Origin: Candidatus Hodarchaeota archaeon
Lineage (GTDB): Archaea > Asgardarchaeota > Lokiarchaeia > Sigyniarchaeales > SOKP01
NCBI GenBank assembly: GCA_048886685.1
Contig: JBHLKM010000004.1
Span: forward strand, 114,486 to 178,485
Direction of reading: 5' to 3'
Length of the DNA stretch: 64,000 bases
In this document: positions 5,291-42,967 of the stretch, in pieces
How the letters are laid out: every line of letters begins with the position of its first letter
Position numbering within the stretch: position 1 is the stretch's first letter
Made by a program: the position numbers and the translations under genes
The notes under the pieces: generated by a model
What the model saw: the letters and a program-made list of their open reading frames with translations, nothing else
What the model was told of the DNA's origin: nothing
Database searches by the model: none

Positions 5291-5304
5291 ATAAAAACTC
5301 GTAT

Positions 5305-25581: not shown

Positions 25582-26937
25582 TTATAACTTATTTTTGATG
25601 AATAATTTCAGATCTTCATACTTATTAATTTCTACTGGATTCGAGAATTCCTTTTTATTTTGAATAATCTCCAATGCTTTTGGTAATTCTGGTTTAACTT
25701 TTATTAATGAGATAATTTCATTAGGAAATTTAGCTGGATCAGCAGTTTCGAAAGTAATAGATTTGATTTGACTTTGAGAAGGATTGTTATTACGGTAGAT
25801 CTGAAGAGCTGCCCATCCGACGGCACCATGAGGTTCTATAATTTTCTCATATCTTCTATAAAATTGTACAATTGTTTCTCGTGTTAAATCATCACTTATG
25901 GAGTATGATGCTATATTAGCTCTAAGTTTTTCTAAATCTGGATTTCTTTGAATATTTCCATTTTCATCAATTTGTCCTCCATATAAATCAAATATACGGG
26001 CTAAATTACTAGGATTACCTACATTCATAGCAGAAGAGAGGCAATTTCTTGAGGGAACGATTTTTGAATAAATTCCTGATTTTAGAAATTTTGGGAATTC
26101 ATCATTCTCATTTACAGCAGAAATAAATTTATCAACTGGCAAGTCCATTTTAGATGCTATAAGTCCACCAGTAAGATTACCAAAATTACCTGAAGGTACT
26201 GAAAAAATCACTTTTTCATTTAGGTGTTGGATTATTCGTGAATAACTCCAAAAATAATAAATGACTTGGGGGACAAGACGACCAATATTAATAGAATTTG
26301 CAGATGATAGGTTATAATCTTGTAAATCTTTATCTGCAAAAGCGGTTTTTATAATTTTCTGACAATCATCAAATTTCCCATTGATTCCTATTGCTATAAC
26401 ATTTTTTCCAAGAGTTATCATTTGTTTTCTTTGCAGTTCGCTGATTTCTTTTTTAGGATAGAGTACAATTACTTTAATTCTTGACATTTTATAGAATGCT
26501 TGCGCTACAGCGCCCCCCGTATCCCCAGAAGTTGCTGTTAATATTATTATTTCTTTTTTCTCAAGTGAAAGAAAATATTCCATGATTCTTGCTAAGATTC
26601 TTGCTCCAAAATCTTTGAAACTACAAGTAGGACCTTTACTTAGATGGCATAAATAGTCAGATTTTTCAATTGTCTCTAATCCAATTTCAAAATTCAAAGC
26701 ACTTCGTATAATCTTTTTTAATGACTTTTCAGGTATTTGATCTTTTAAAATTTTTAATAAAATCTCAAAAGCAATTTCTTGTAAACTTAAGTCTTTAAAA
26801 CTAAATATTTTTCGATGATCTATTGTTGGAATCTTATTTAACATGTATAAACCCTTATCTAAGGCTTGCCCTCTCAAAACAGCCGTTTTAAAGTCGACAT
26901 CTGGAGTGTTGTAGTTTGTTGAATGGAATTTAATCAT
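25582..26937 (-). CDS. thrC: Threonine synthase (long form)
   Basis: GPTCSFKDFG, ATSGDTG, SANSINIGRL, SVPSGNFGN, ETADPAKF. Confidence 0.93.
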   Translation of the reverse strand: MIKFHSTNYNTPDVDFKTAVLRGQALDKGLYMLNKIPTIDHRKIFSFKDLSLQEIAFEILLKILKDQIPEKSLKKIIRSALNFEIGLETIEKSDYLCHLSKGPTCSFKDFGARILARIMEYFLSLEKKEIIILTATSGDTGGAVAQAFYKMSRIKVIVLYPKKEISELQRKQMITLGKNVIAIGINGKFDDCQKIIKTAFADKDLQDYNLSSANSINIGRLVPQVIYYFWSYSRIIQHLNEKVIFSVPSGNFGNLTGGLIASKMDLPVDKFISAVNENDEFPKFLKSGIYSKIVPSRNCLSSAMNVGNPSNLARIFDLYGGQIDENGNIQRNPDLEKLRANIASYSISDDLTRETIVQFYRRYEKIIEPHGAVGWAALQIYRNNNPSQSQIKSITFETADPAKFPNEIISLIKVKPELPKALEIIQNKKEFSNPVEINKYEDLKLFIKNKL

Positions 26938-26955
26938 AGTTGATATTGATTAATT

Positions 26956-27474
26956 TTATTTTAATAAATCATTAATTTTGTTGATTGCTTCTAATGGAGT
27001 ATTTACACCATATATCATGTCATTTCTTCTATTATCTAACTTTTGATTAGCAATTTTAGAAGACCAACCCTGAACACTCGATAAAGCTACTAAAGGTTTA
27101 TCATATATCCATGCGAAACAAATTTCAGATAAAGTTCCTGCTTTTCCACCAATAGCTAAACATATGTCACCTGTAAGTACGACAACAATATTTCTTGCTT
27201 GTGAAAACGGACATGGAATTACAAGATCTACATATTTGTTAGCTAAGCTTTTTTCTGTATGTGGAATAATTCCGACTGTAAAGCCTCCTTCTTCTTTGGC
27301 ACCTTTACATACTGCTTCCATTACACCAGAAAGACCACCACAAGCCACAGCGTACTGGTTTTTTGCGATTAATCTCCCGATTTCTATGGTTTTATCCTCT
27401 ATTTCTTTATCAATTTCACTTGCTCCTATAACAGAAATTACAGCTTTAAAGTTATTTTTATAATTTAAACTCAT
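26956..27474 (-). CDS. LOG/Rossmann-fold nucleotide-binding protein (TIGR00725-like)
   Basis: CGGLSGVMEAVCKGAKEEGG, ARN, GGKAGTLSEI. Confidence 0.88.
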   Translation of the reverse strand: MSLNYKNNFKAVISVIGASEIDKEIEDKTIEIGRLIAKNQYAVACGGLSGVMEAVCKGAKEEGGFTVGIIPHTEKSLANKYVDLVIPCPFSQARNIVVVLTGDICLAIGGKAGTLSEICFAWIYDKPLVALSSVQGWSSKIANQKLDNRRNDMIYGVNTPLEAINKINDLLK

Positions 27475-27509
27475 AATATTGAATCTATATTTATTAAATT
27501 AAAAATATA

Positions 27510-28523
27510 TTACGTAATATATCCTCTTTTTATTGAAATATCTATTAAATCATTTAGTATAGCCGATGCGGCTTCAAAACCCCCAGCACCTCTCCCCATT
27601 AAGATTATTGGCCCTGCATATTTAGTTTCTAGTTCGACCACATTTAAATTTCCGCTAATATTAAGAGGAGAATACTTATCAATCAAACGTGGTTCTACAG
27701 ATAATTCATTATTTTCTGCTATAGCCAGATGTTTAATGACAAAACCATCTGGTTTAACTAATTCAATCGCATGAGGGGTTACCTTCGAAATACCTTCTAC
27801 TTTAACATCCGTTATACTTTTTGACCATCCTAACAATTCGTTCGCTAATATAACTAACTTTCCAGCAGCATCATAACCTTCAATATCTAAAGTAGGATCT
27901 GATTCAGCATATCCCAACTCCTGTGCTTCTTTTAAAGCTAAAGGAAAATTAACTCCTTCCGCAGTCATTCTGCTTAATATGAAATTGGAAGTGCCGTTTA
28001 ATATTGCTTTTATGCTAAGAATTTCATTTCCAATTAAATCTTCTTTGATCTTTAATGAAGGAACACAACTCGCAACAGTTGCTTCAAATTTTACGTAGCA
28101 ATTATTCTGTTCAGCTAAATTCTTAATCTTTTTATATTCGAGATAAAATGGTCCTTTATTAGAAGAAATAACGTCTATATGGTTATTAAGAGCTTCAATA
28201 ACATGAGACAAACCGGGTTCTCCTGTTTCCGGATTTGTAGGTGTGGTTTCTATACAAATATTTACATCTAATTTAGAGATTAAATCGATTGCTTTTAGAT
28301 CACTTTTCCAATATGAAAGATTTCTAAAATCGTTGTCCGCATCCAAAACTTCTTTTAAATCAATTCCTTTTTTATTGATAAGTGCTCCATCGATTTCGAA
28401 AATTGAATTCACAATAACTTTTAAATTAAATTTCTGCTTTAAAAAATCTTTTTTTTGATATAATAATTGAATTAAACTAGTTCCAACCACCCCTTTCCCG
28501 ATTAAACAGATTTTAACAGTCAT
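27510..28523 (-). CDS. hom: Homoserine dehydrogenase
   Basis: GKGVVG, SNKGP, FEATV, ILNGTSNFIL, AQELGYAESDPTLDIEGYDAAGK, GRGAGG. Confidence 0.95.
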   Translation of the reverse strand: MTVKICLIGKGVVGTSLIQLLYQKKDFLKQKFNLKVIVNSIFEIDGALINKKGIDLKEVLDADNDFRNLSYWKSDLKAIDLISKLDVNICIETTPTNPETGEPGLSHVIEALNNHIDVISSNKGPFYLEYKKIKNLAEQNNCYVKFEATVASCVPSLKIKEDLIGNEILSIKAILNGTSNFILSRMTAEGVNFPLALKEAQELGYAESDPTLDIEGYDAAGKLVILANELLGWSKSITDVKVEGISKVTPHAIELVKPDGFVIKHLAIAENNELSVEPRLIDKYSPLNISGNLNVVELETKYAGPIILMGRGAGGFEAASAILNDLIDISIKRGYIT

Positions 28524-28622
28524 TGTTTTGATTAGAACAGATTTTAATTATTGTTTGGTTTTACAGAGAATTTAGTCGGTTTATTATCATTTGATTTATG
28601 ATACATATTAAACTCATTCAAT

Positions 28623-29114
28623 TTAACTTGTAATTAAAAATAAATTCTTTTCTTCACATATTTTTCTAAGTTCATTATTAAGTTCCTTTTTATTCATATA
28701 TTCAGGGAATTCAATTCTTAACTTAACATTACTTACTTCTTCTAATTCTGTAAATTTAGCTTGTAATTCTAACACATTAATGTTTTTAGATGCTAATCTT
28801 TTAATTGTATCCATCACATCTGTATCAAATACATGTCCGGTTAAAATTATTGTGATCAGTTTCTTCTCAATCCCATAATTTATGTTCTCTATTTGAATAT
28901 TTTTTTCCTTTAACTCTTTTTTTATATTTTTTATGCTAACTTCTTGAATTTCCTTACTCAATTCAAAAGTAACGTTTACAGGAATCATGTTATTTATTTT
29001 TCTATCATGGAAATGAAGGATACCATAAATATTTCCCCCATTATTAGAGATCGGTTTGATTAATTCAATTAAACTTCCAGGCGTGTCAGGTAATTTAACT
29101 TCTAAATTTATCAT
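28623..29114 (-). CDS. ACT-domain protein (archaeal homoserine dehydrogenase regulatory partner type)
   Basis: LPDTPGSLIELIKPISNNGGNI, ILTGHVFDTD; directly upstream of hom. Confidence 0.8.
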   Translation of the reverse strand: MINLEVKLPDTPGSLIELIKPISNNGGNIYGILHFHDRKINNMIPVNVTFELSKEIQEVSIKNIKKELKEKNIQIENINYGIEKKLITIILTGHVFDTDVMDTIKRLASKNINVLELQAKFTELEEVSNVKLRIEFPEYMNKKELNNELRKICEEKNLFLITS

Positions 29115-29224
29115 AATTATTTTTCTATTTTCTGTAATTTTCTCTTGATATTCCTTGATTGGATCTTAAGAATTTAGGATTATTACGTTATTAGCAATTC
29201 TATTACTTATATTAACTAAAAATT

Positions 29225-30190
29225 TTAAAATCTAATTACATCAATAGACTCTTCTTTTCCATTATTTATCCTCAGAAGATTTGGATCTTTAATAATATTT
29301 CCTATAATATTAGCATTTAACCCATATTCTTGAAATGTTTCTATAATTTCTTCGCAGTTTATTTCAGGGGCAGTCAATAGAAATGAGGTAGTTAAATACA
29401 TTTGAATATAGGTTTCTAAATTATATCCATTATCCTGTAATTTTGGGGGAATTTTAATTTTTGATATATTCACATCTGCTCCTACATTTGAATAATTTAT
29501 CATTTGAAATAGTGTTCCAAAAATTCCACCATTAGATATGTCTTTTGATGCATTGGCTAGATGTTTTTGCGCAATCATATTCATAGCTTTTCTCTTTCTT
29601 AAAACTTCTTCGGAACTTTTAAAAGTGGTAGTATCATAATATAGGTTGCTTGCTTTACCCTTTTTTCCATCGAAATCAACTGCTAATATAATATTATCTC
29701 CTACTTGTGCATTTCCTGCAGAAATGTAATCTTCCTTTTTAATTTCACCAATCATTGTAGAACTTAACTCATAACATTTTCCATGGACGTTAGTATGTCC
29801 TCTAATAATCGGAACATTAAATTTCTGGGAACCCGCACATATTCCTTCAAGCAATTCTTTACAGATATCTGGTTCTTTCACTGAAATAATTATGCTTGCT
29901 GCTAATGGGACTCCCCCACATGCATAAATATCATCTACACTAACCAGAATTGAGCTAAAACCAGCACCAAATGGGAAATTTTCGATAAAAGTAGTTTTTA
30001 TTCTATCTGTAGTAACCAGTATATATTTATCATCATCTTTTATAGTGGCAGCGTCTTCACCTATATCTGTGAATATATTTGCACTTTTAAACGAATTTTT
30101 GTCAATAAATTGAACTATAGGACTAATTTGTCGCTTTTCTAGAATGTATTGATTATTTTTAATGCTATTAGCAATCTTTTTAAGTGTCAT
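29225..30190 (-). CDS. AIR-synthase/PurM-like protein (methanogenesis marker 2-like)
   Basis: IGEDAA, VSVDDIYACGG, VPIIRGHT, ASKDISNGG. Confidence 0.8.
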   Translation of the reverse strand: MTLKKIANSIKNNQYILEKRQISPIVQFIDKNSFKSANIFTDIGEDAATIKDDDKYILVTTDRIKTTFIENFPFGAGFSSILVSVDDIYACGGVPLAASIIISVKEPDICKELLEGICAGSQKFNVPIIRGHTNVHGKCYELSSTMIGEIKKEDYISAGNAQVGDNIILAVDFDGKKGKASNLYYDTTTFKSSEEVLRKRKAMNMIAQKHLANASKDISNGGIFGTLFQMINYSNVGADVNISKIKIPPKLQDNGYNLETYIQMYLTTSFLLTAPEINCEEIIETFQEYGLNANIIGNIIKDPNLLRINNGKEESIDVIRF

Positions 30191-30208
30191 CTATGAATTT
30201 AATATGAA

Positions 30209-30555
30209 GTTATTAATAAATAACTGAGTAAAATTACTCGGTTTACTTATTTATACTTAATATTGTTATTAATAAATAACTGAGTAAAAATACCCAGTTT
30301 ACTTAATTATAGTTATATAAAGTTATTAATAAATAACTGAGTAAAATTACCCAGTTTACTTATTTATACTTAATATAGTTATTAATAAATAACTGAGTAA
30401 AATTACCCAGTTTACTTATTTATACTTAATATTGTTATTAATAAATAACTGAGTAAAATTACCCAGTTTACTTATTTATACTTAATATTGTTATTATAAA
30501 TTAAATACGTTAAATAACATTATTTACTTAATTTTAAGTTATTTTGTTTAAGTTT
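30209..30555 (+). repeat. 56-57 bp tandem repeat array (5 near-identical units + 1 degenerate), each with a 22-bp imperfect palindrome
   Basis: Unit GTTATTAATAAATAACTGAGTAAAATTACCCAGTTTACTTATTTATACTTAATATT at 30209, 30265, 30322, 30378 and 30434; degenerate unit from 30490. Confidence 0.97.
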
Positions 30556-30583
30556 AGTTTAAATCATCAATAAAAACTAAAAT

Positions 30584-32779
30584 CTAAGCAATTAAGGGGA
30601 CACTTTTATCTATGAAGATTTTGGTTATCATAAGCTCAAGAGAAGGAATATCTTTTACTTGAATTTCCTTATTTAACCGGTAAAAATCCCTAAAAGTCTG
30701 CCAGGCATCTTTATCTTTCTGTAATTCGTCAATGAAATATCTAATCCTCTGTTGTGCCGAATATGATTGCCCCTTGTATACATAACACATCAGAAAGGGT
30801 GAAACAGAGTTCATTAGGAGAGTATGTTCACCAAAAGTAGCTCGATCAAGCCCCTCAGAGAATTTTTCATTTATAAATGAATTAATTGCTGTAAAGAAAC
30901 TCCCAAGTAGATCATTCTCCAAAGACCATTGTTCAGTAAATGATTGAGAGAATATTGGTATTCCCCCTTCTGAGACAACTAAAAGTAGAACAGGATCTTC
31001 ATCTGAAAGTTGAGGAGCTTCCACTACTCGCCTTCTGATCATATTCTCCAATTGTTCATTTAATCGAGCAAATTCTATACGATCTTTTATTGATGAACTT
31101 GATTCTTTTAAACTCTCCCATACATTTAATTGTTTTAGAAGATCATCATGTTCATTTGAAATTTTTATAGCTAGCAATTTAAGACCGAATTTTTCGGCGA
31201 TTTGCTGAGCTTGAGTTAAAAATCGCTGAGCCTCCTTCATATCAAAGGTTAATAGAGATAATTTAGCTTTTAACAAGTAAGTTTCGCATTGAACCGAGAA
31301 AGAACCCGTATTTTCGGCAATATTTAATAATTGAGCAATAAGAGGTTTGATTTCCTCCAGTACCTCTAAGTCGTTAGTCATTCGTAACTCGGTTAAGAGC
31401 AATTCACATAAGTTAGTTAGTGTTTTTATTGTTAGCTCGTAATCTTCATCCTTATCTTCAAGAATTTGCTTCAATACTTTCTCGGATTCAGCTCTATTCT
31501 GAGCTCGAGTGCTCGTTTTCAGCAATAAAGCTTTATTTAAGAGATACCTCAAATTATAATCTTTTTCTTTAAGCTGATTGTTTAGTTGTTCATAACGGTG
31601 AAGAAATTGTTGCGATCGTTCAAGGTCTCCCTTTTCAATTAATGTTTGAATTAAATAATCGTAAATACTAGCCAGACGTCTTAAATTTCCCGAATCTTCA
31701 TATAGCGCCAAGCATTGTTCTATACACTCTAAAGCACGATCTAATTCTCCTCTCTGTCTATAGGCTTCCCCCATATTATTAAGAACACCAGCAATCCACC
31801 TTTTAATGTTAAGGTCACTGAAAATTGTCAACGCTTGCTCATAAAGCTTAATACCACGATCCAAATCACCTTTAAATATATATACTGCTGCCATACTATA
31901 AAAAGAAAATCCGATAAGCCATTTAATGCCACTTTCCTCGGCGATAATCATTCCTCGTTCCAGGGTTTTTAAAGCACGATCTAATTCTCCTCTCCTTATA
32001 TAGGCTAAGCCCCTATTGTTAAGATGAATTCCGATCATAAATTCATTGTTAATACTATTGAAAACTGCTAAACCCCGATCCGAAAACATTAAACCAAGCT
32101 CCAAATCACCTTTACCATAATACTTAACAGACATACTACTCAAAGAATATCCGATAACCCATTTATTACCACTTTCCTCGGCAAGTGGCCTAGCTTGCTT
32201 GGAAAATTTTAAAGCTTGATCATAATCGGATTTCAAAAAAGTATATACCCAAGAAATTGCTATAAGGGTAATAGTCATATCCTTTTTAGCGTTAAGTTCT
32301 TCTCGTAACGCTAAACTATACCCAAGATGCTTTAATGCTTGATCAGCTTCATCTATTAATATGTAATACCAACCCTTAAGATAAGCTAAATAAGCCTTTC
32401 TTTTCTTATAATCTTCTGATATCTCTTGCGGTGAAACCTTTAGCAGTCCTTCTACTTGTTTAATAATATTGTTAAGTTTATCCGATTGTTTATGCCATAC
32501 TAAAGCATCGGCCATTCTAAGTAAGATATCGACTGACAGGAGGTTTTTTTCTAATCCTAAACTCTCTTTATATGTTTGTTCAGCAAGTGTAATAACATCT
32601 TTATGTAAACCTCTCCAAAATAAAAGATCACATTTGAGGAGATGAGATAAAACAATACTATGAAGAGAGTGTCCTCCCTTTTCCTCGAAGTTTTTAAGTA
32701 ATTGATTCGCTTCATCTAATTTACATTCTTCAAGGAGTTGTTTTATAAGAATTAATTCCTTAGGTTCTAAATAAGACAT
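30584..32779 (-). CDS. TPR-repeat protein with C-terminal longin-like domain
   Basis: 40-aa TPR units (RGELDRAL twice, KGDL twice); C-terminal LLVVSEGGIPIFSQSF...LLGSFFTAINSF. Paralogue of 5305-7269. Confidence 0.9.
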   Translation of the reverse strand: MSYLEPKELILIKQLLEECKLDEANQLLKNFEEKGGHSLHSIVLSHLLKCDLLFWRGLHKDVITLAEQTYKESLGLEKNLLSVDILLRMADALVWHKQSDKLNNIIKQVEGLLKVSPQEISEDYKKRKAYLAYLKGWYYILIDEADQALKHLGYSLALREELNAKKDMTITLIAISWVYTFLKSDYDQALKFSKQARPLAEESGNKWVIGYSLSSMSVKYYGKGDLELGLMFSDRGLAVFNSINNEFMIGIHLNNRGLAYIRRGELDRALKTLERGMIIAEESGIKWLIGFSFYSMAAVYIFKGDLDRGIKLYEQALTIFSDLNIKRWIAGVLNNMGEAYRQRGELDRALECIEQCLALYEDSGNLRRLASIYDYLIQTLIEKGDLERSQQFLHRYEQLNNQLKEKDYNLRYLLNKALLLKTSTRAQNRAESEKVLKQILEDKDEDYELTIKTLTNLCELLLTELRMTNDLEVLEEIKPLIAQLLNIAENTGSFSVQCETYLLKAKLSLLTFDMKEAQRFLTQAQQIAEKFGLKLLAIKISNEHDDLLKQLNVWESLKESSSSIKDRIEFARLNEQLENMIRRRVVEAPQLSDEDPVLLLVVSEGGIPIFSQSFTEQWSLENDLLGSFFTAINSFINEKFSEGLDRATFGEHTLLMNSVSPFLMCYVYKGQSYSAQQRIRYFIDELQKDKDAWQTFRDFYRLNKEIQVKDIPSLELMITKIFIDKSVPLIA

Positions 32780-32832
32780 ATTTTTTCCTAGAAATTATTG
32801 AATCAGATAGCTTGGTATTATCACTTTTTAAT

Positions 32833-32956
32833 TACAAGTTACATATTAAGAATATTACACTTTAAAATATAGGTACATGTGTAGAAATACAAATTCTACT
32901 TAAATATAGGATACCATCACCTTTAGTTTAAGTATTCATCTAAAAAAGTAACTAAA
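32833..32956 (-). promoter_or_regulatory. Conserved upstream non-coding block of the TPR gene (copy 2)
   Basis: Ungapped match to 7310-7433. Confidence 0.7.
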
Positions 32957-32967
32957 AAAATTAAAAT

Positions 32968-33051
32968 TACGTATTTATATATTAATAACTTTATAAAGTA
33001 TAATTAAGTAAAGTGGGTAATTTTACACACTTATTAATAAATAATAATAAC
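32968..33051 (-). repeat. Inverted copy (plus inner degenerate part-copy) of the 56-bp repeat
   Basis: AAGTATAATTAAGTAAAGTGGGTAATTTTACACACTTATT matches the reverse complement of the array unit; core at 33011-33032. Confidence 0.85.
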
Positions 33052-33095
33052 AATAAAAAAAAAAATATATTTTTTAACAAATACTTATTTTAAAT

Positions 33096-33329
33096 TTACT
33101 CTCCGCGTCCAACGAACTTTTCAAATATAAATGCGACAATACATATAATACCTGAAATGAGAATCCCAATAGGTGCGAAACCAATAGTAGTTTCACCCAT
33201 CGCAATATTTTCTGAATCAAATACAATATATAAGATTGGAAATATAATCAGTGCAATTCCTACTAGTGCATAGACTAACCAATCCCATTTAAAATCCATA
33301 CCTTTCATATTATGGATTCCATAAAACAA
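33096..33329 (-). CDS. Small two-TM membrane protein
   Basis: 77 aa with two hydrophobic segments; probable start 33308. Lies between two repeat copies. Confidence 0.6.
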   Translation of the reverse strand: MFYGIHNMKGMDFKWDWLVYALVGIALIIFPILYIVFDSENIAMGETTIGFAPIGILISGIICIVAFIFEKFVGRGE

Positions 33330-33508
33330 TAAAACACTATATAAAACTATCGCATTCTCTCAATTGTGTTACAATCCAACTTTCTTTTTTATCTATTAAT
33401 TGCTTTTATTTCAATTGTATTACAAAAAATTATTTTTATAAAAATAACAAAGTAAAAACTTTTTCTTATTGTGTACACATTAAAAAAATATTTATTGATA
33501 AAGGTTAT

Positions 33509-33555
33509 GTAAAATTAAATAAAGTGAGTAAAATTACTCAGTTATTAATAATTAA
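33509..33555 (-). repeat. Further inverted copy of the 56-bp repeat core
   Basis: AAATAAAGTGAGTAAAATTACTCAGTTATTAATAA, core TGAGTAA-AA-TTACTCA. Confidence 0.8.
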
Positions 33556-33614
33556 TTTTGCTTAATTACTTTAAGAAATTTAAAATTTAAAACAAAAAAA
33601 AATTACTTCAAGCA

Positions 33615-35120
33615 ATGGAGGAATTATTCAAAACTTCAATTATCAAGGGATTAATTTTTTCATCTTACGGAGATTTAGGTCCACAACCAATTTATGTATG
33701 GCCTAAATATTATACCGATAAAGAGATAGAAATTGTTAAAGAAGAGAGGGAAAAACAAAACCTTCTCACTCTAACAACTAGAGATGTTACACAAATCTCA
33801 ATTAAAAACCTTAGTTTGTTTATTAGTGATAGAGCATTTACTCCAGATATAGATATTCAAGGTTTAATGTATTTTGCCATCTTACCTTATCCTGATTTCA
33901 ATGCAACATCTTTAACATATTTTCATTATATCAACACTGGTCCTTCTAACTCCCAGATTCCTACAGCTTTTTCAATCTTAGTTGATGAAATTAGTAGAAG
34001 TTTTTTATATAATAATATAAACAGAATTAAACCTATTGTTATTGAATTTTTTAAAACTTTTGATAATAAATTAACTGATGGGTTTCCACCTCAATTGGAG
34101 ATAGAATCTGCATTTCATGATTTATTCAAAAAAATTATAGAGATCGAAAGAAATCCATCAACTCCAATTACTACTCATCGAAAGATGAAGATTTTATTTG
34201 CTGGGCTTGACGATAGTGGTAAAACAAGTTTTTTACTTTCTGTAGATCGAAAATATAGTAAGTTGATTGGATTAAAACCTACTACTGGTGCTAGTATTAA
34301 ATCAATAGAAGCTTTAGGAGCAACAATCTTTTTATGGGATTTAGGTGGACAACTAGAATTTAGAAAAAAATACATTAGTAAAGCAGAAATATATTTATAT
34401 GAAGCAGATTTATTATTTTATTTTATTGATATCAGGAATAAAATTAGATTTGAAGAAAGTATTGAATATCTTCTTGATTTAAAAAGAGTCTTAAAACAAT
34501 TTAATCAAAATACTCCGATTATCTATATTCTATCAAAAGGGGATTCTGATATTATAAAAACTGGGGAAATTATAGAAAATATTGAAACTATTAGAAATAG
34601 TTTAACTGAAATTTCACCAGAAGAACCACCTGAAATATATGTGACTAGTATTTTTCAGATATTTACAATATTAAGAGCCTTCTCTTCAGGAATCTCAAAA
34701 TTAAGTCCTAACAGAAATCTTATCAATCATAATCTTAGGAATTTCTCTTTAAAAACTAACGCTTATTTAACTCTATTGTTAAGTGTAGATGGGTTGGTTT
34801 TAGCAGATTTCTATTCCCCAAAAGCGAAAAAATTGACAAGGTTACCTGAATCCGAGGAATTAGTTAATGTTTTTGAGATAACTGCCCCACAATTTGCTAT
34901 GTTATTCAAAATTTTCTCTAGATTCAAGGCACTACAGGAAGAAGAAGCAATCTTTAAAGTAGCAGATTCAGTGATACTTTTCAGAAGGGTTCAAGCAGCA
35001 GAAAACGATATGTTCATGTTATTTCTGATTGATAACGAAAAAAGAAAAGAAAAAATAAATGCTAAGCTAGTTGATTTCCTTGGTCAAACAAAAGATCTTT
35101 TATTAAGATATATTGCTTAA
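33615..35120 (+). CDS. uDENN/longin-like domain + Arf/Rag-like small GTPase + roadblock-like domain
   Basis: GLIFSSYGDLGPQPIYVWP; G1 GLDDSGKTS, G3 WDLGGQ, variant G4 SKGD; LLLSVDGLVLAD. Paralogue of 18658-20124. Confidence 0.85.
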   Translation: MEELFKTSIIKGLIFSSYGDLGPQPIYVWPKYYTDKEIEIVKEEREKQNLLTLTTRDVTQISIKNLSLFISDRAFTPDIDIQGLMYFAILPYPDFNATSLTYFHYINTGPSNSQIPTAFSILVDEISRSFLYNNINRIKPIVIEFFKTFDNKLTDGFPPQLEIESAFHDLFKKIIEIERNPSTPITTHRKMKILFAGLDDSGKTSFLLSVDRKYSKLIGLKPTTGASIKSIEALGATIFLWDLGGQLEFRKKYISKAEIYLYEADLLFYFIDIRNKIRFEESIEYLLDLKRVLKQFNQNTPIIYILSKGDSDIIKTGEIIENIETIRNSLTEISPEEPPEIYVTSIFQIFTILRAFSSGISKLSPNRNLINHNLRNFSLKTNAYLTLLLSVDGLVLADFYSPKAKKLTRLPESEELVNVFEITAPQFAMLFKIFSRFKALQEEEAIFKVADSVILFRRVQAAENDMFMLFLIDNEKRKEKINAKLVDFLGQTKDLLLRYIA

Positions 35121-35138
35121 ATAATAAGAGTTAATGAA

Positions 35139-36041
35139 TTAAAATATTACATTTAATGGGGTTTTTTCAGATATTTTTTCCCTTAATATTCTCTTTCTAT
35201 AATAGGAGTTAACGCCAGAGATTAATGCAACTGCAGGTACGGCACATTTTGCGAATTTTACAGGGCCAAATAATATGAAATCGCTTGGGGCACATGCACA
35301 ATAGGTCATAATAGAGGCTATTGCTCCACATCTAGGGATATCCCCATATTTCTTAACAAAATCCCATCCATAAATTGCATTTGAAGGAGCAAATCCCGTA
35401 GGTAAACCTAATTCACTTTTTACCATATGATTCGTTTCAAAATTTATTGAAATTGAAGGTAAATCTAATACAGCACTATCAATAATTATATTTTTAATAT
35501 TTGCTTTATTAGCTTTGGGAATTAATATTTCTTTTAACAATTTTAGTTTTTGATGAGGAAAAACATATTTACTTCCAAATGTTAGCAATACTGCATTTTT
35601 AACTCCAATTTCCTTTAATTTTTCAAGATTTTCTTCGTTAGTAGCGTCATCGATACTATTTAAGATAGCTCTATCAATTAAACCAATTTCCTTCAACCCT
35701 TCCATAGCGGGAATACGGGATGAATCATTTAACCCATCAACTAGAAAAGGATAATTTATTAAATCTGCCACAAATTCGCACTCTTTTAATAATGCATCGG
35801 GATATGCTCCAACGACATCCACTATTCCTTGCATTTTAGTTTCTTCTATAATCTCAGTAAATTCATTTAATTCTCTTTCCACAAGGAGTTTATCTATCTC
35901 ACCAGTTTTTTCATTTAATAAAGCTGCATGTTTCGAGTAGAAAACAGTGCCAACCATCACAATTGGATTTTCTCCTGGTTGTCCTCCTATCCTAATCTCA
36001 CCAATTTGAGCTACTTTTTGCTCAGATTCAAAATTTAGCAT
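35139..36041 (-). CDS. mtrH: Tetrahydromethanopterin S-methyltransferase subunit H-family protein (stand-alone)
   Basis: IGGQPGENPIVMVGTVFY, ILNSI, GLPTGFAPSNA, DFILFGPV. Confidence 0.85.
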   Translation of the reverse strand: MLNFESEQKVAQIGEIRIGGQPGENPIVMVGTVFYSKHAALLNEKTGEIDKLLVERELNEFTEIIEETKMQGIVDVVGAYPDALLKECEFVADLINYPFLVDGLNDSSRIPAMEGLKEIGLIDRAILNSIDDATNEENLEKLKEIGVKNAVLLTFGSKYVFPHQKLKLLKEILIPKANKANIKNIIIDSAVLDLPSISINFETNHMVKSELGLPTGFAPSNAIYGWDFVKKYGDIPRCGAIASIMTYCACAPSDFILFGPVKFAKCAVPAVALISGVNSYYRKRILREKISEKTPLNVIF

Positions 36042-36109
36042 AATTCATCACAGGATTTCTTCCATATTTATTTGATTAATAATAACTCAATTACTCTATT
36101 AAAGTTGAT

Positions 36110-37003
36110 TTAAGTTTTCTCTTTTGCAAATGGCTTGTTCTGCATAAGTAATTCAATGAAATTAGATATTTCATTATCAGGAATAAGCAAGAAGTTCCCT
36201 TCTACTGTGTATCCATATTCTTCAGACCATTTAACAATATCTTTTAAATATGTTTTCTTTTCCATTCTTAGAACTTTTCTTATTAGATTTAAATCAACTT
36301 TACCTGTTTCTTTTACAAGTTCCTTAACTTTTTTCTTTCTATTCTGTTTAACTGGTTCACTTACAAGTGTTCCTACATATATTATTGAAATAATAAATTC
36401 TGGAATCCACTTATGCATTAATAGTACGATTATAGCCGCTATAAAAGAGCTTGCCGCACTTATTGAGAAATGAATGTCTTCCCATGCATAGCCAATATTA
36501 TATAACTCAATTTGGATAAGCATTCTAATAATGTTGACAACATAAAAGATTATTGATGATATAATGAGCGCTTTGGTTTTTCGCCATATAACATCTCTTT
36601 TTGTGTCTGAATCTTGACTGTGGGGTGTAAAAATGATGACACCAGCAAATACGCATATTGCCTGAATCCCAGTACAGAATGTCTCGAAGGAAATATTTGA
36701 TTTCCCCGGAATTACAAAATCCCAGTGATATTTTCCTACGGGATTATAGACCGCGCTCGCATTCATATCAAAAAATAAATTTAGAAAATAAACTGTTTGT
36801 TTTACCACAATCTCATGAAGATAGTAGTTTATCTCTAAATCAAAGAACAGATAAATGAGGTAGGCAGATAAGGGGGCTCCAATAGCAAATATAACCAAAA
36901 ATCTAATAGAAAAAATATATTTTCGTTCATTATATTCAATTATTGGCTTTTTGATTTTTTTTATTCCTTCAATCTTTAACATTGAGTTTCTCCTCTTTAT
37001 CAT
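36110..37003 (-). CDS. Exosortase/archaeosortase-family membrane transpeptidase
   Basis: Cys-Arg-His triad motifs FCTGIQA, NIIRM, IHF; multi-TM. Probable start about 36982. Confidence 0.8.
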   Translation of the reverse strand: MIKRRNSMLKIEGIKKIKKPIIEYNERKYIFSIRFLVIFAIGAPLSAYLIYLFFDLEINYYLHEIVVKQTVYFLNLFFDMNASAVYNPVGKYHWDFVIPGKSNISFETFCTGIQAICVFAGVIIFTPHSQDSDTKRDVIWRKTKALIISSIIFYVVNIIRMLIQIELYNIGYAWEDIHFSISAASSFIAAIIVLLMHKWIPEFIISIIYVGTLVSEPVKQNRKKKVKELVKETGKVDLNLIRKVLRMEKKTYLKDIVKWSEEYGYTVEGNFLLIPDNEISNFIELLMQNKPFAKEKT

Positions 37004-37208
37004 TAAGCTGAGTAATTATATAATGAAATCTATCTACTATGATGTAATTTAAAATAATTAACAAGGGAATCATTACAAATCCGAAGATATAACTATTCCT
37101 TGTTTCTAATAGTGGAATAGTGAATCCAATAAGATATGCAAACAGTAAATTTATTGACAATAATAGCCATATATATACTTTCTTTAAAGTTATTTGCTCC
37201 ATGATCAT
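36969..37208 (-). CDS. Small two-TM protein overlapping the archaeosortase start
   Basis: 79 aa, two TM segments, apparently translationally coupled. Confidence 0.65.
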   Translation of the reverse strand: MIMEQITLKKVYIWLLLSINLLFAYLIGFTIPLLETRNSYIFGFVMIPLLIILNYIIVDRFHYIITQLNDKEEKLNVKD

Positions 37209-37517
37209 GATAACAACTATTTTAATATAAAAATGACAAATTAACCATCGATAAAAAACCTTTATTAGAAAGTGAAAATATTGCTTTCATTTATTTTTAT
37301 CTCTTATATAACTTTGGTAAATTGCTTAAAAGAGCTAATATTTACTCATTCATAATTTTTTTATATCTAAAATTTTTGTAGATACTTCAATTATGCCATA
37401 AACGGGATTTAAGTCTCATTTTGGGCAAATCTTAAGTAAAATATTATAGTTAAATAGAATGCAATCTTAATATGTTTATAAAAATCAAAGGTTATCATTA
37501 ATCTTCGGAGTTCTTTA

Positions 37518-38117
37518 ATGGTTCTTGAAATCCAAACTAGAGAAGATATAAGTAGTCTGACATATACTATTCAAAACATCGTTGTTAAATCATTTTTAAA
37601 AGTTGCCGAAGATCTTGATTTAGTATTATTATCAGAAAAATTGAAAAACTCACAATATGATAAAGATCGCTTTCCTGGGCTTTTTACGAGGTTTAGTCAT
37701 CCTAAAAGTGCCATTATAATTTTTAGAAATGGAAAGTTGATTCTAACGGGATTAAAAGCATTTTCTCATGTTGATCTAATAATTAATAGACTAATTTTAA
37801 AACTAAAAGAGATTTTTCCAATTGATATACAAATTGATTTAGTTGAAACTCAAATTGTCAATATAGTAGTAACCGCTGATTTTTCTAAGCCAATCAACTT
37901 AGATGCAGCGTCTATCAAACTAGAAAATGTTATTTATGAGCCAGAAGTTTTCCCTGGATTGACATATAATTCCTCTATTCCTGTGAAATCAGTATTTTTA
38001 ATATTCAGTACAGGGAAAGTTGTACTTACGGGAATTAGAGATAAAAATATGATTGAACCTGTATTAACTAACCTTGGACGATTGTTTAAAAAGGAGAAAT
38101 TATTTAAAAGTAGATAA
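37518..38117 (+). CDS. tbp: TATA-box binding protein (divergent)
   Basis: Two TBP repeats: IQNIV...RFPGL...IFRNGKLILTG and IVNIV...YEPEVFPGL...IFSTGKVVLTG. Confidence 0.9.
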   Translation: MVLEIQTREDISSLTYTIQNIVVKSFLKVAEDLDLVLLSEKLKNSQYDKDRFPGLFTRFSHPKSAIIIFRNGKLILTGLKAFSHVDLIINRLILKLKEIFPIDIQIDLVETQIVNIVVTADFSKPINLDAASIKLENVIYEPEVFPGLTYNSSIPVKSVFLIFSTGKVVLTGIRDKNMIEPVLTNLGRLFKKEKLFKSR

Positions 38118-38224
38118 AATAGTTTTTCAACAAAGTCAATAATTATTAAAAATAAAATTTTTAGTCAAAGAAATATAGTAATTTATGATAAATTAAAGTA
38201 AAAGATCTTTTTGGGAAAAATAAT

Positions 38225-38971
38225 ATGTCAGATAATAATCAAGAAAATCAAAACTCAGATAAGAAAGAAGATCCTGAAATAACAGAATCGGAAGCAAGTG
38301 GAATTAGTGATGAAGAGAAAGAAGTTAAAACTAAATTTACATTCAAATGTACCCGCTGCGATGCATGCTGCTTAGCTAGAGGTCCCGTTCCAATCACTTT
38401 TTGGGATTTAGAAATGTGGGCAAGAAATGGAGTAGTTGCAAACTTTATGCCCTATTTGGATATCTACCAAAAACCAGATGGTGGGATTGATTTAATATTA
38501 AAACCATTACCTCCACCTAAAGAAGGAGATGCAGAAAGTCCTCCTCAAGATCCATTTGAGACAGCACCAATTGAGGAACTGCTTGATGTTAAATGTCCTT
38601 TATATAATAAAGATGACAAAAAATGTCTTATTTATGATAATCGTCCATTAAGTTGCAGAACGTACCCTTTAGAATTTGATGGAAAAAATTTTATAGTGGT
38701 TGATGCTGATTGTCCTGGTATAGGTGAAGAAGGTATGACAAAAGAAGATCTTGCTGAGATGAGAGAAACAGCAAAAACAATGCATTATGAATTAACTCGT
38801 ATGAGGATTGCTTTACCCGTTCTAAATCAAATTGTATCAAGTAATTTCATGAAGATGCTAATGAAACAACAAATGGAAGCAATGAGTAAAATGTCAGATG
38901 ACGATAAAGCCAAATTAGACGAAATTTTTAAGAAACAAGAACAGAGCCACGATCATGATCATGAATCTTAA
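38225..38971 (+). CDS. YkgJ-family CxxCxxCC cysteine-cluster protein
   Basis: FKCTRCDACC, CPLY...CLIYDNRPLSCRTYP, CPGIG; His-rich tail. Confidence 0.9.
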   Translation: MSDNNQENQNSDKKEDPEITESEASGISDEEKEVKTKFTFKCTRCDACCLARGPVPITFWDLEMWARNGVVANFMPYLDIYQKPDGGIDLILKPLPPPKEGDAESPPQDPFETAPIEELLDVKCPLYNKDDKKCLIYDNRPLSCRTYPLEFDGKNFIVVDADCPGIGEEGMTKEDLAEMRETAKTMHYELTRMRIALPVLNQIVSSNFMKMLMKQQMEAMSKMSDDDKAKLDEIFKKQEQSHDHDHES

Positions 38972-39054
38972 ATTTTTTATTTCTTTCTATAAATTTTTTT
39001 AAAAATCTTATCTACTTATATCATATTTGAAAATAATAGCAAAAGTGTAATTGT

Positions 39055-39573
39055 ATGAAAGAAATAATTATAAAAAATTCTAAAATTAAACTTGTTCAAG
39101 GGGATATAACGGAGTTGGAAACAGATGCCATTGTTAATGCGGCAAACGCTCAACTAATATTAGGAGGAGGGGTTGCAGGAGCAATTAAGAAGAAAGGTGG
39201 ATCCTCAATTCAAGAGGAATGCAATAAAATTGGTGGTACGTTTGTGGGTGGTGCTGTTATTACAACAGGGGGAAATTTAAAAGCAAGACATGTAATTCAT
39301 GCAGTAGGGCCTAGAATGGGAGAAGGGAATGAGGATGAGAAATTAAAAAATGCTACTATTAATAGTCTAAAATTAATGGATGAGCATAAATTAAAAACAA
39401 TAGCATTTCCTGCTATATCTACTGGCATATTTGGTTATCCAATCGATAGATGTTCAAAAATCATGATTTCTACAGCGAAAGAATATTTAAGTGGTAATAC
39501 TCAAATTGATGAGGTTATTTTTTGCCTTTATACCGCTTCAGATTATGATATCTTTTTCAAAGAGTTAAAATGA
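39055..39573 (+). CDS. Macro-domain protein (ADP-ribose hydrolase / O-acetyl-ADP-ribose deacetylase)
   Basis: GDIT, AIVNAAN..L..GGGVAGAI, HAVGP, AFPAISTGIFGYP. Confidence 0.93.
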   Translation: MKEIIIKNSKIKLVQGDITELETDAIVNAANAQLILGGGVAGAIKKKGGSSIQEECNKIGGTFVGGAVITTGGNLKARHVIHAVGPRMGEGNEDEKLKNATINSLKLMDEHKLKTIAFPAISTGIFGYPIDRCSKIMISTAKEYLSGNTQIDEVIFCLYTASDYDIFFKELK

Positions 39574-39683
39574 TTAATTTTTGACGTTACTTTTTTTATT
39601 AACGTTTAATTTATAATTAGAAGAAGAATAATTATTATTTAGAGAAAGTCGCATTATTACTATAGTTTAAGGTTTCTCTTTAA

Positions 39684-42596
39684 ATGAGTAATTATAGATA
39701 TATCAAGTTCTTTGAAGATTTAAGAGTTGGAGATGTGCCTCTCGTAGGAGGCAAAAATGCATCACTTGGGGAATTATTAAGTTTTGGGATAGCAGTTCCA
39801 CTTGGTTTTGCTGTAACTTCTACAGCTTTTGACTATGTTCTGGATACTAACTACTATACAATTAAAGAAAAGGAAGTCTCACTTCGAGAATTGATTGCAA
39901 GAGACATAAAAAGAATATCTAATGAATTAAAATCAGAAGATATTAAAGCTGTAGAAAAAGTTGATAAAATTTGTGCAAATATTCGATATGTCATTGAGCA
40001 ATCCAAAATTCCAGATTCACTCGCTGATGAGATCCTAGATGCTTATAACAAATTAATTGAAAAGATTGGAGAAGAATCCACGTTTGCCGTGAGAAGTTCT
40101 GCTACAGCAGAAGATCTTCCTGATGCTTCTTTTGCGGGACAACAAGACACACATTTAAATATCTCTGGTGAGAAGGAAATATTGGAATATATTCTAAAGG
40201 ATATGGCTTCTGTATTTACCACAAGAGCCACAATGTATCGTGAACGGGCAGGCTTTGATCACTTTTCAGTTAAACTTTCTGTAGGAGTTCAAGAAATGGC
40301 TGGTGGTTTGGGTGGAGTAAAATCTTCTGGTGTAATGTTCACAGAAGATCCTGATTCTGGTAATCCGAACGTTGTTGTTATTAGATGTACTTGGGGTTTA
40401 GGCGAATTAATTGTACAAGGTGTTGAAAAAGGGGATGAATTTATCGTCTTTAAGCATGATCCAAAAGCTCTCAGAATTATTCGACGAGAACTTGTTAAGA
40501 AAGAGAAAATGATGATTTTTTCTGAAGGTAGGGAAAAAATTGGAACTGAAGTCGTCTCTGTGCCAGAAGAAAAGCAAACATTATACTGCTTAACAGAAGA
40601 AGAAGTCTTAACTCTTGCAGAATATGCCCAAAAAATCAGAAAACATTACGGCAGACCGATGGATATTGAATGGGCTGTTGGCAACAACGGAAATGTTTAT
40701 ATTGTCCAAGCGCGTCCTGAAACTGTCCATAGCATAAAAGGTGATGTCGAGGAAATTTTTTATCTACTTGAAAGTCCAGAGGAATTGACAGAGAAAGGTT
40801 TATTAATCGAAAATTCAGGTATTGCTATTGGTAGAAGAATTGGATATGGGAAAATAAAGGTAATAGAGTCTATAAATGATGCTCATTTGTTAAGAGAAGG
40901 AGATATCCTTATCACTGAAGAAACTAATCCTGATTGGACATCATATATGCAGAATTTAGGGGGTGTAATCACTGAAAGGGGGGGACCAACTTGTCATGCA
41001 GCAATAGTTTCAAGAGAATTAAATATTGCCTCTATAGTAGGAGCAGATGAGATAGTCCAAACAATGAAGGAAAAACAAAGGGAAGGTATTGAGTACGTTA
41101 CAATTGATTGCAGTGAAGGTGAACCCAAAATATGGTTGAAAGATGTTGAATACGATTCTGATACAATCGAATTTGCTAAACTTCCGCATACAAAAACTAA
41201 GGTATTAGTGAATTTAGGAATCCCTAAAGGAGCATTATCTGCCGGGAAGTACCCCGATGGAACTGGATTAGCAAGATTAGAGTTTATCATCAACGATGAG
41301 GCTCAAATTCACCCGAATGCGTTAATAGATTTTGAAGCCTTAATAATGAGATATGAGATATTATTAGATCAACGAAAAAAAATAGAAAATATCAAAAAAA
41401 GTGATTTATATCATAAAGATCCTTTTAATAAAGAAATTTTTCAATTAAAGGAAACTCTTGATAATATAAGGACTCAAACCGTTGGTTATGAGGATAAAGA
41501 AGAATTTTACGTAGATAAATTAGCTGAAGGTATTGCTACAATTGCTGCTGGTGTATGGAAAACATTGGACGATGGGAGTATAGCTGAATGTGTTGTTAGA
41601 CTTTCAGATTTTAAAACAAATGAATATGCTAATCTTATTGGTGGTTGGATTTATGAAGGAGAAGAGAATAATCCTCTACTAGGTTTTCGAGGAGCATCAC
41701 GTTATGTACATAATGAGTTTCAAAATGCTTTTATTTTAGAATTAAGAGCAATTAAAAAAGCTAGAGATTGGGGTTTAACAAATATAATTCCAATGGTTCC
41801 ATTCTGTCGATCCCATCTTGAAGGGAAACAAATTTTAGAAATAATGGAAAGCGAAGGATTAATAAGAGGTCAAGATGACCTAAAAGTCTACGTTATGGCT
41901 GAAATTCCTTCAAATATCATATGTGCAGACTTATTTTGCCAATATTTTGATGGATTTTCTATAGGATCAAATGACCTCACAATGCTCACTTATGGAGTTG
42001 ATAGAGATGAAGCAAAGTTAATTCCGATAGCGAAAGAATTTAAATATAGCACAAATAGTGAAGCTATTCGAAGATCTCTAAGCTTTCTAATAAAAACAGC
42101 TCATGAACATGATAGAAAAGTTGGTATTTGTGGACAAGCTCCAAGTGATGACCCTGACTTTTTAAGATTTTTAGTACGAGAAGGAATTGATTCAATTTCC
42201 TTAAATTTCGATACATTTGCCCGAGGACGAATTAATACCTGGAGAACTGAGATAATCGAAGCTAAATTGGATGATATCAATAAATCTAAATCTTATGATT
42301 TTTTAAATGATTGTGATAAACTTATAGAAAATATCAGGATCCCAAGAGGCAAACTTCGAAATATGGTTAGAAAACAAGGTAGAAATGTAAATCCTAGACT
42401 AATTGAATCTACAGAACAATTTAACCAAATTTTTGATACTATCCAGAAGTTATCATATGATTTTGTAGAAGGTATTGACAAGGGAAAAATTAATAAATTC
42501 GACGATTATTTTGAAAATTTAAATAACCAGATCAAAGAATTTAAAAACAAAATTCCTTTAATGAAACGCGAAATTCGTGAATTTGGTATTTACTGA
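39684..42596 (+). CDS. ppsA: Phosphoenolpyruvate synthase (pyruvate, water dikinase)
   Basis: VGGKNASLGE, AVRSSATAED, SFAGQQDT, TCHAAIVSRE (phospho-His), RLSDFKTNEY, FSIGSNDLT, GICGQAPS. Confidence 0.95.
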   Translation: MSNYRYIKFFEDLRVGDVPLVGGKNASLGELLSFGIAVPLGFAVTSTAFDYVLDTNYYTIKEKEVSLRELIARDIKRISNELKSEDIKAVEKVDKICANIRYVIEQSKIPDSLADEILDAYNKLIEKIGEESTFAVRSSATAEDLPDASFAGQQDTHLNISGEKEILEYILKDMASVFTTRATMYRERAGFDHFSVKLSVGVQEMAGGLGGVKSSGVMFTEDPDSGNPNVVVIRCTWGLGELIVQGVEKGDEFIVFKHDPKALRIIRRELVKKEKMMIFSEGREKIGTEVVSVPEEKQTLYCLTEEEVLTLAEYAQKIRKHYGRPMDIEWAVGNNGNVYIVQARPETVHSIKGDVEEIFYLLESPEELTEKGLLIENSGIAIGRRIGYGKIKVIESINDAHLLREGDILITEETNPDWTSYMQNLGGVITERGGPTCHAAIVSRELNIASIVGADEIVQTMKEKQREGIEYVTIDCSEGEPKIWLKDVEYDSDTIEFAKLPHTKTKVLVNLGIPKGALSAGKYPDGTGLARLEFIINDEAQIHPNALIDFEALIMRYEILLDQRKKIENIKKSDLYHKDPFNKEIFQLKETLDNIRTQTVGYEDKEEFYVDKLAEGIATIAAGVWKTLDDGSIAECVVRLSDFKTNEYANLIGGWIYEGEENNPLLGFRGASRYVHNEFQNAFILELRAIKKARDWGLTNIIPMVPFCRSHLEGKQILEIMESEGLIRGQDDLKVYVMAEIPSNIICADLFCQYFDGFSIGSNDLTMLTYGVDRDEAKLIPIAKEFKYSTNSEAIRRSLSFLIKTAHEHDRKVGICGQAPSDDPDFLRFLVREGIDSISLNFDTFARGRINTWRTEIIEAKLDDINKSKSYDFLNDCDKLIENIRIPRGKLRNMVRKQGRNVNPRLIESTEQFNQIFDTIQKLSYDFVEGIDKGKINKFDDYFENLNNQIKEFKNKIPLMKREIREFGIY

Positions 42597-42691
42597 AAAT
42601 TGCTTAAAATCAAAAAAATTAAATTTCAAAAAATATTTCACAATTTAAATTTCTCACTAACTAAAAACACTATTTTTGGAGATTTCTGATC

Positions 42692-42967
42692 ATGACTAAA
42701 GGATTTAGTGATGAAGTTAAAACTGCTTTTGAAACTGTTGAGGAGCTTTTAAATGGAATGTTAGGAGATCGAAGTGTGCCCCGAAACATAAAACGGGTGG
42801 CTCAAAGGAGTATTGATGAATTACATAAGGAAGATGAGACCCCGGGTGTGATTTCCAGTAATGTAATGTATATGGTTGATGATCTTGCTCAGGACGCTAA
42901 TATTCCATTTCATGCGCGCACTACAGTTTACCGAATTATTTCAATATTAGAGAACATTAAAGATTAA
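42692..42967 (+). CDS. UPF0147-family protein
   Basis: DRSVPRNIKR...DANIPFHART. Confidence 0.85.
   Translation: MTKGFSDEVKTAFETVEELLNGMLGDRSVPRNIKRVAQRSIDELHKEDETPGVISSNVMYMVDDLAQDANIPFHARTTVYRIISILENIKD

Follow-up and report, generated by a model that had tools for sequence, protein, structure and literature searches.

The window analysed here, a 64,000-nucleotide stretch of a Candidatus Hodarchaeota archaeon genome (contig C4:114486-178485 of genome G000, a 4.4-Mb assembly with 29% G+C), contains a ~3.33-kb block in which a gene for a tetratricopeptide repeat (TPR) protein and a short membrane-protein reading frame are bracketed by copies of a palindromic repeat unit. The block separates two divergent chromosomal genes, and its structure, its distribution among related genomes and the way in which it may have reached this position are the subject of this work. 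The features of the locus are as follows, where L027 designates the G076:C27 locus used for comparison:

29225-30190, minus strand: flanking gene for an AIR-synthase-related protein (methanogenesis-marker-2-like), first of a co-oriented run (Pfam AIRS/AIRS_C; NCBIfam TIGR03267 at 253 bits, below cut-off)
30208-30219, no strand: left copy of a duplicated 12-bp core AGTTATTAATAA, containing the putative 6-bp exchange spacer (TAATAA on the plus strand, TTATTA on the minus strand)
30209-30489, plus strand: five type-1 units (56/57 bp), each made of a core, a 22-bp palindrome and a TTTACTTA(W)TTATA spacer; putative repeated right-end (attR-type) sites (Tandem Repeats Finder; covariance-model matches of 72-84 bits)
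30490-30551, plus strand: type-2 (TACGT) unit, the sixth and degenerate one; homologues are the array behind TPR paralogue B and unit a of the G022 insert
30584-32779, minus strand: cargo 1, gene for a TPR protein of 731 aa (Pfam TPR_12 and TPR_MalT; weak longin-like C-terminal domain, Fuz_longin_1 E 0.0056, below cut-off)
32944-32989, minus strand: inverted type-2 unit upstream of the TPR gene (inverted repeat I1); the homology between TPR modules A and B stops here
32990-33051, minus strand: inverted type-1 unit (palindrome 33011-33032), presumed left end of the TPR cassette
33096-33329, minus strand: remnant of cargo 2, comprising the C-terminal 77 codons of a gene for a multi-pass membrane protein of 157/159 aa (protein and DNA identity to G076)
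33330-33508, minus strand: non-coding 5' region of the membrane-gene cassette, common to G076 (33336-33427 93.5% and 33431-33597 86.8% identical to L027)
33509-33543, minus strand: terminal inverted type-1 unit (palindrome 33522-33543), presumed left end of the whole insert (repeat search, alignment, covariance model)
33540-33551, no strand: right copy of the 12-bp core AGTTATTAATAA, of which the empty sites of relatives have a single copy and this locus two
33615-35120, plus strand: flanking gene for a Rag/Gtr1-like GTPase (Pfam Gtr1_RagA), directly divergent to the AIR-synthase-related gene in relatives

The repeats largely follow the picture drawn in the initial annotation of this DNA, which had described five near-identical units of 56-57 bp and a degenerate sixth downstream of the TPR gene. 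Tandem Repeats Finder reports an array of period 56 at 30209-30501 (5.2 copies, 93% matches, score 514), the repeat search agrees, and the sixth unit (30490-30551, repeat family D2) continues the array in register. Every genome compared in this work is a metagenome assembly, and the number of array units is that of the assembly. When the window was scanned for the core AACTGAGTAAAATTACCCAGTT with up to three mismatches, seven matches were obtained (30222, 30278, 30335, 30391, 30447, 33011 on the minus strand, and 33522) against 0.00 expected from shuffled sequences. Five of them fall within the array and the remaining two at 33011-33032, on the opposite strand, and at 33522-33543. The inverted copies reported to the right do lie on both sides of the 77-aa open reading frame (ORF), at 32944-33063 and 33509-33551: the arms 30416-30535 and 32944-33063 are 76% complementary over 120 nt (inverted repeat I1), and the outer copy (33505-33568) is 75% complementary to 30310-30373 in the array. 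The same holds for the mirror symmetry of the block, since the inner unit on either side carries the TAAATACGT variant, and for the 18 bp that separate the array from the start codon at 30190. Terminal inverted repeats are present in the alignment of the ends (A1), with ~45 nt aligned at a mean column identity of 71%; type-2 units align at 52% column identity. The DNA hairpins of the units are weak (-5 to -8 kcal/mol). A CRISPR-like array was considered and rejected, as there are no spacers of that kind.

The clearest evidence on the history of the block comes from its absence elsewhere. Orthologues of the AIR-synthase-related gene are found in 39 of 40 relatives, and the region upstream of it was compared across 12 same-genus loci. 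In ten of these the AIR-synthase-related and GTPase genes are direct divergent neighbours ~100 bp apart, and the conserved spacer between them holds one copy of GTTATTAATAA, with the 12-mer AGTTATTAATAA, and no palindrome. The closest of the empty-site genomes, G017, shows 94% identity in the AIR-synthase-related protein and 94-96% in the flanking DNA. The site is likewise empty in G076, bringing the empty same-genus genomes to 11. The 12-mer occurs once in relatives and twice in G000 (30208-30219 and 33540-33551), where its copies bracket ~3.33 kb, as the plus-strand junctions illustrate:

Empty site in relatives: ...AATATAA AGTTATTAATAA TTAATTTTGC...
Left junction in the window: ...AATATGA AGTTATTAATAA ATAACTGAGTAA...
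Right junction in the window: ...TTACTC AGTTATTAATAA TTAATTTTGC...

The closest relatives lack the block, at a site that can be placed precisely. Together with the comparisons that follow, this makes it fairly probable that the block (30214-33551) is a recent, lineage-specific insertion of two serial non-autonomous cassettes moved by conservative site-specific recombination.

Other species have these ends around different cargo. The two flanking genes of the block also border a 1.8-kb insert in G022 (locus L028, G022:C26), whose cargo encodes a 451-aa secreted, membrane-anchored SBBP beta-propeller protein. With hyphens marking junctions here and below, this insert starts at ...TTATTAATAAC-TGAGTAATTTT, with a half-degenerate palindrome, and ends with a type-2 (TACGT) unit followed by a type-1 unit, ...TTATTTATTAATAAC-TTTATAT, directly before the start codon. 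At its left end (L028 10836-10857) only the outer palindrome half AACTGAGTAATTTT is kept before the sequences diverge, the break falling at the palindrome centre. G076 has a 1.5-kb segment with the same ends in inverted orientation at an unrelated locus, where it is flanked by genes for an SCP2-like protein and an Fe-S protein; its cargo consists of two tandem intact genes for multi-pass membrane proteins of 157 and 159 aa. In G009, which is ~90% identical to G076 around this locus, the flanks of the cassette are contiguous and overlap by 12 bp (aaattctaaat[TTATTTATTTAT]tttttt), and the sides of the G076 cassette read TTATTTATTAAT on one and TTATTTGTTAAT on the other; judged by its sequence, the G009 locus is a second, independent empty site. 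Three cargo sets are thus known, all with their genes oriented alike relative to the ends, and the G000 and G022 inserts occupy exactly one nucleotide position with different cargo. The non-autonomous cassette proposed in the initial annotation is supported both by the empty sites that it suggested looking for, present in 11 genomes, and by the alternative cargo of G022 and G076, and its statement that no recombinase is encoded in the block stands, none being present among the ORFs or Pfam matches.

The DNA of the window and of the G076 cassette is 94% identical over 301 nt, 93.5% over 92 nt of non-coding sequence and 87% over 167 nt, whereas the flanking core genes of the two genomes show only 70.5% and 72.8% DNA identity. 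Cassette identity is far above that of core genes, and the exchange of the cassette is therefore much younger than the divergence of the species. The 77-aa ORF of the window shares 82-88% amino-acid identity with residues 79-157/159 of the G076 membrane proteins. Hence, the small membrane gene described at first does encode a membrane protein sequence but is not a whole gene: it covers only the C-terminal half of a protein encoded at full length in G076, and is thus a truncated remnant. The G076 cargo is a tandem duplicate (157 + 159 aa; L027 7919-8936), and the remnant in the window could have originated by deletion across a tandem pair of this kind. A full-length paralogue of the membrane protein (59% identity) is encoded elsewhere in G000, at C6:148282-148710.

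The main cargo of the window, the TPR gene, belongs to a family of ~27 paralogues in G000. Its product is at most 64% identical to proteins of the species representatives of the genus, and its closest homologues are 95% and 89% identical (P0002 and P0003). It has 731 aa where most paralogues have ~655 aa, as a result of internal duplications of TPR units; direct repeats of 120 and 240 bp, 85-86% identical, lie within the gene at 31730-32182 and represent recently duplicated TPR units. A second array of type-2 units occurs in the window behind another paralogue:

5155-5283, plus strand: second array of type-2 units (57 bp, 2.3 copies), behind TPR paralogue B (5305-7269, minus strand)

Paralogue B also has a partial inverted copy of the unit upstream, and homology between the A and B modules extends from the type-2 unit through the gene to ~177 bp upstream, ending at TACG boxes. 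TPR paralogues are indeed mobile as modules, although nothing ties the type-1 ends to them in particular, since these ends also carry beta-propeller and membrane genes. The closest paralogue of the TPR gene (on C12, 60% identity) and its orthologues occupy a stable locus without arrays, and no units were found around the membrane-gene homologues of G094, G016 and G023 or around the closest TPR homologues. Neither G003 nor G011 has the ~3.3-kb block around paralogue B (~4368-7694); in both, the 8-oxoguanine glycosylase gene and the gene for a 109-aa protein that flank it in G000 stand side by side. Besides the paralogue and its 57-bp array, the block comprises several small ORFs as well as an AbrB-like one. 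No units, type-1 included, were found at its outer junctions, and the region looks like a variable hotspot. G017 holds different DNA at this position.

Such a hotspot lends some weight to the view that the block under study is a passive indel, that is, a segment of ancestral or horizontal origin that other genomes lost, or that entered G000 through homologous or illegitimate recombination between short AT-rich repeats, with an array produced by slippage and no dedicated system involved. The second TPR block is also an indel, with outer junctions that lack units, the copy number of the element is very low, and AT-rich direct repeats favour slippage. However, homologous inverted ends enclose three different cargo sets, the junctions are precise at two different targets, two species have received different cargo at exactly the same nucleotide, and the cassette rises far above the core genome in identity with no extended high-identity flanks. 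Taken together, these observations leave the passive account very improbable.

Comparison of filled and empty sites, written below in cargo orientation, suggests where an active exchange would take place:

G000, left: AAGCAAAATTAA-TTATTA-ATAACTGAGTAA
G000, right: TTACTCAGTTAT-TTATTA-ATAACTTCATAT
Empty site in relatives: AAGCAAAATTAA-TTATTA-ATAACTTTATAT
G076, left: TTCTAAATTTAT-TTATTA-ATAACTGAGTAA
G076, right: TTACTCAGTTAT-TTGTTA-ATCTTTTTTATA
G009, empty site: TTCTAAATTTAT-TTATTT-ATTTTTTTCATT

Joining the right end to the left end reconstructs the site TTACTCAGTTAT-TTATTA-ATAACTGAGTAA, a perfect 12-6-12 inverted repeat. It has the two inverted arms of ~11-13 bp around a spacer of 6-8 bp that are looked for in tyrosine-recombinase sites, and the spacers agree with one another: of the 15 unit and junction sites read by eye, 14 show TTATTA. 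The duplicated stretch measures 12 bp in both events (TTATTAATAACT in G000, TTATTTATTAAT in G076) but its position with respect to the palindromes differs by 4 nt between them, so that only TTATTAAT is common to the element and both targets. From these junctions we infer that exchange would occur within TTATTA(AT), a 6-bp spacer that lies beside the 22-bp palindrome and not at its centre, at a site of the tyrosine-recombinase type.

These junctions also bear on whether the block is instead a non-autonomous transposon with terminal inverted repeats, resembling a mobile insertion cassette (MIC) or a miniature inverted-repeat transposable element (MITE) with passenger genes. In that case a DDE transposase would have made a 12-bp staggered cut, the 12-mers would be target-site duplications and the palindromes would form part of the terminal repeats. 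The inverted ends of ~30-45 bp and the 12-bp direct duplication in both independent events are what such a transposon would leave, and enzymes are likewise missing from the interior of mobile insertion cassettes (PMC6199540). Against this, the offset of the duplication from the ends differs by 4 nt between the two events and both targets resemble the core of the element itself. With only TTATTAAT shared, the 4-nt offset therefore favours conservative site-specific recombination, which fits a core common to element and target, over a fixed staggered cut by a transposase. Moreover, an autonomous element sharing these ends did not turn up in 133 family genomes, the species-genome set (185k genomes), IMG/VR or metagenomes. 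Transposition thus seems unlikely, although it deserves to be taken seriously.

Each cassette is bounded by inverted copies of an end sequence of ~45-60 bp. Under conservative site-specific recombination, integration would proceed by strand exchange in TTATTA(AT), and the 22-bp palindrome beside the core would serve as the recombinase-binding element. The first cassette would comprise the outer end unit (33509-33551) and the DNA from there to the membrane-gene remnant, which it includes, while the second would start at ...TTATTATTAT-TTATTA-ATAAGTGTGTAA (unit 32990-33051) and comprise the inverted type-2 unit, the TPR gene, the following type-2 unit and the type-1 array. Unit 32990-33051 is flipped between two TTATTA cores with respect to the homologous position in G076. 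Units 3-5 of the array are almost identical to one another, and unit 2 (30265-30321) is the variant nearest to the right ends of G076 and G022 (94% identical to the former). We infer that recent amplification of one right-end site is the simplest origin of the five-unit array, the right-end sites having presumably multiplied through unequal crossing-over or through repeated rounds of integration and excision.

The left core spans -29 to -18 relative to the start codon of the AIR-synthase-related gene. In leaderless archaeal transcripts the TATA box is expected in this region, and the target in G000 would accordingly be the TATA-box region of that gene. As every unit brings its own copy of the core, the promoter would be rebuilt after insertion. 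This position invites the alternative that the repeats serve in regulation, as a multimerised operator or promoter module of the AIR-synthase-related operon or as TPR terminators, and were copied along with the genes; a regulatory or chromosome-organising array had also been raised in the initial annotation. The array stands 18 bp upstream of the first gene of the operon, each unit combines a TATA-like TTATTAATAA with a dyad typical of dimeric DNA-binding proteins, and another array is found behind TPR paralogue B. Nevertheless, 11 relatives keep the operon and its conserved promoter without the palindrome, in G076 the units enclose unrelated genes at a different locus, and the core is unique in the genome, so that there is no regulon. 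The promoters of these relatives contradict a regulatory or chromosome-organising role as the explanation of the block, which is highly doubtful.

Neither the core nor the covariance model, which was built from 12 units, matches any other locus in the whole 4.4-Mb G000 genome. The model identifies one locus each in G000, G022 and G076, that is, in three of 52 genus genomes and three of 133 family genomes. Searches with the exact degenerate pattern returned 22 contig matches in 185,579 species genomes, of which only the G022 contig is real, and 28 matches in JGI metagenomes, all due to chance; core matches with three mismatches in other genomes lack the unit flanks and are also attributable to chance. 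A dispersed repeat family was discarded on the grounds that the core is confined to one G000 locus. The genome scan for the core suggested at the outset thus revealed no family of sites within G000, an outcome that, for this genome, is among those named in the initial annotation as refuting its reading. The same ends did turn up around cargo in G022 and G076.

The catalyst has no gene within the cassettes and must therefore work in trans. It could be the single tyrosine recombinase of G000 or an enzyme from an unsampled extrachromosomal element. PF00589 (Phage_integrase) has one match in G000, at C2:183383-183856, 1 kb from an orc1/cdc6 gene, and G017, G022 and G076 each have a counterpart of comparable size (309-315 aa); the G000 recombinase is probably XerA. 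No match to PF00239 (Resolvase, serine recombinase) was found in G000, G076 or G017. The initial annotation had likened the inverted arms around a 2-bp centre to serine-recombinase sites, an idea that finds no support, since the junctions lie beside the 22-bp palindrome and no Resolvase-family gene was found in G000. A palindrome derived from IS200/IS605 elements, or a repetitive extragenic palindrome (REP), was discarded for lack of PF01797 (Y1 transposase) matches in G000, G022, G076 and G017 and because the core is found at one locus only. A replication origin with origin recognition box (ORB) repeats was dismissed as well: the three orc1/cdc6 genes (Cdc6_C) lie on C15, C2 and C1 and none on C4, and the repeats are absent from relatives.

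Two further observations concern G000 at large. Cumulative GC skew has a local minimum at ~36-38 kb (within 26000-46000) of the window, where gene orientation switches, and this minimum is probably a gene-strand effect. Outside the window, a separate dispersed repeat of ~50 nt, GGAAAGGTAAATTCAGCGTCTGATTTCAATGAAAATTCCTTTGAAAA, occurs at C15:91-112 kb, C25:0.7-11 kb and C12:153-167 kb and on C19, C20 and C34. A 16-mer search with two mismatches gives 45 matches, most of them true copies; some have a longer conserved 5' part, and the copies are clustered at a spacing of 1-3 kb, often beside TPR paralogues or contig ends. This repeat could be a MITE, the end of an insertion sequence or a shared regulatory element.

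Several points weigh against site-specific recombination as the origin of the block. The break of the G022 left end at the palindrome centre is not predicted by exchange at the core, and the exchange site is placed from two independent targets. The palindromic nature of TTATTAATAA makes it hard to separate a target-site duplication from a shared core. Covariation in the palindrome is weak, with one pair supported and 33 of 500 shuffles equally good, and the proposed origin of the array is drawn from the similarity of its units. No recombinase is linked to the sites among the G000 matches, and G000 contains no second site that agrees with the reconstructed 30-mer at 22 or more of its 30 positions, which leaves no tie to a chromosomal dif site. 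The exact degenerate pattern has no match in IMG/VR. The element is rare, so its activity may be past rather than present, and this possible inactivity is a counterweight to the significance of the locus.

Known systems of recombinase-less modules provide a frame for these results. The dif (pdif) modules of Acinetobacter are arranged serially, share sites and are inverted, gained or lost between sites with identical spacers (PMC13141974; PMC6449649, PMC7399989); segments between inversely oriented sites that share a spacer are inverted in bacterial dif modules (PMC13141974). Like these modules and the integrative mobile elements exploiting Xer (IMEX), the cassettes described here are discrete, vary in cargo, lack their own recombinase and have inverse sites made of two arms around a 6-bp spacer. 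The unit flipped between two TTATTA cores with respect to G076 and the presence in G000 of one tyrosine recombinase, probably XerA, extend the parallel. Unlike dif modules, the present element is chromosomal, archaeal and very rare, its sites resemble no other site in G000, each site has an additional 22-bp palindrome, and one end is amplified into a tandem array. Mobile insertion cassettes of the MIC231 type are non-autonomous, with inverted repeats and passenger genes (PMC6199540), and MITE-derived mosaic elements are also known (PMC4133298). The present element shares with both the inverted-repeat bounds, the passenger genes and a short flanking direct duplication, but no cognate insertion sequence was found, the target resembles the core of the element and the offset of the duplication differs between events.

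Integron cassettes (attC) offer a third comparison: insertion is close to a promoter, co-oriented cargo genes are each followed by an imperfect palindrome of ~56-60 nt, the cargo varies and a circular intermediate is implied. In the present case, by contrast, no integrase adjoins the cassettes, inverted ends lie on both sides of the cargo instead of one attC per cassette, and there are tandem sites free of cargo. An integron cassette was rejected on the absence of an integrase in or near the block and on the only partial fit (by eye) of GTTATTA and AATAAC to the R''/R' consensus RYYYAAC/GTTRRRY. In its behaviour, the element most resembles Acinetobacter dif modules and, next to these, mobile insertion cassettes. 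By extension of this analogy, Asgard archaea of this genus might possess a cassette-shuffling system akin to dif modules, in which a trans-acting tyrosine recombinase, possibly host XerA, inserts small recombinase-less cassettes into TATA boxes that are then rebuilt, spreading paralogues of expanded families (TPR-longin, surface and membrane proteins) within and between species. We offer this proposal as a speculative one, with rather long odds against it.

Little is known about gene movement in Asgard archaea, and their large paralogous families (small GTPases and the TPR, longin and roadblock proteins that are their partners) bear on the origins of eukaryotes. The locus analysed here supplies a concrete example: a recombinase-less cassette with defined ends, two mapped targets with their empty sites, three cargo sets and a signature of interspecies transfer in its DNA identity. 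It would also illustrate how an insertion may target a TATA box and yet spare the downstream operon from silencing. If the host recombinase is indeed responsible, these cassettes would constitute an archaeal counterpart of the Xer-dependent modules.

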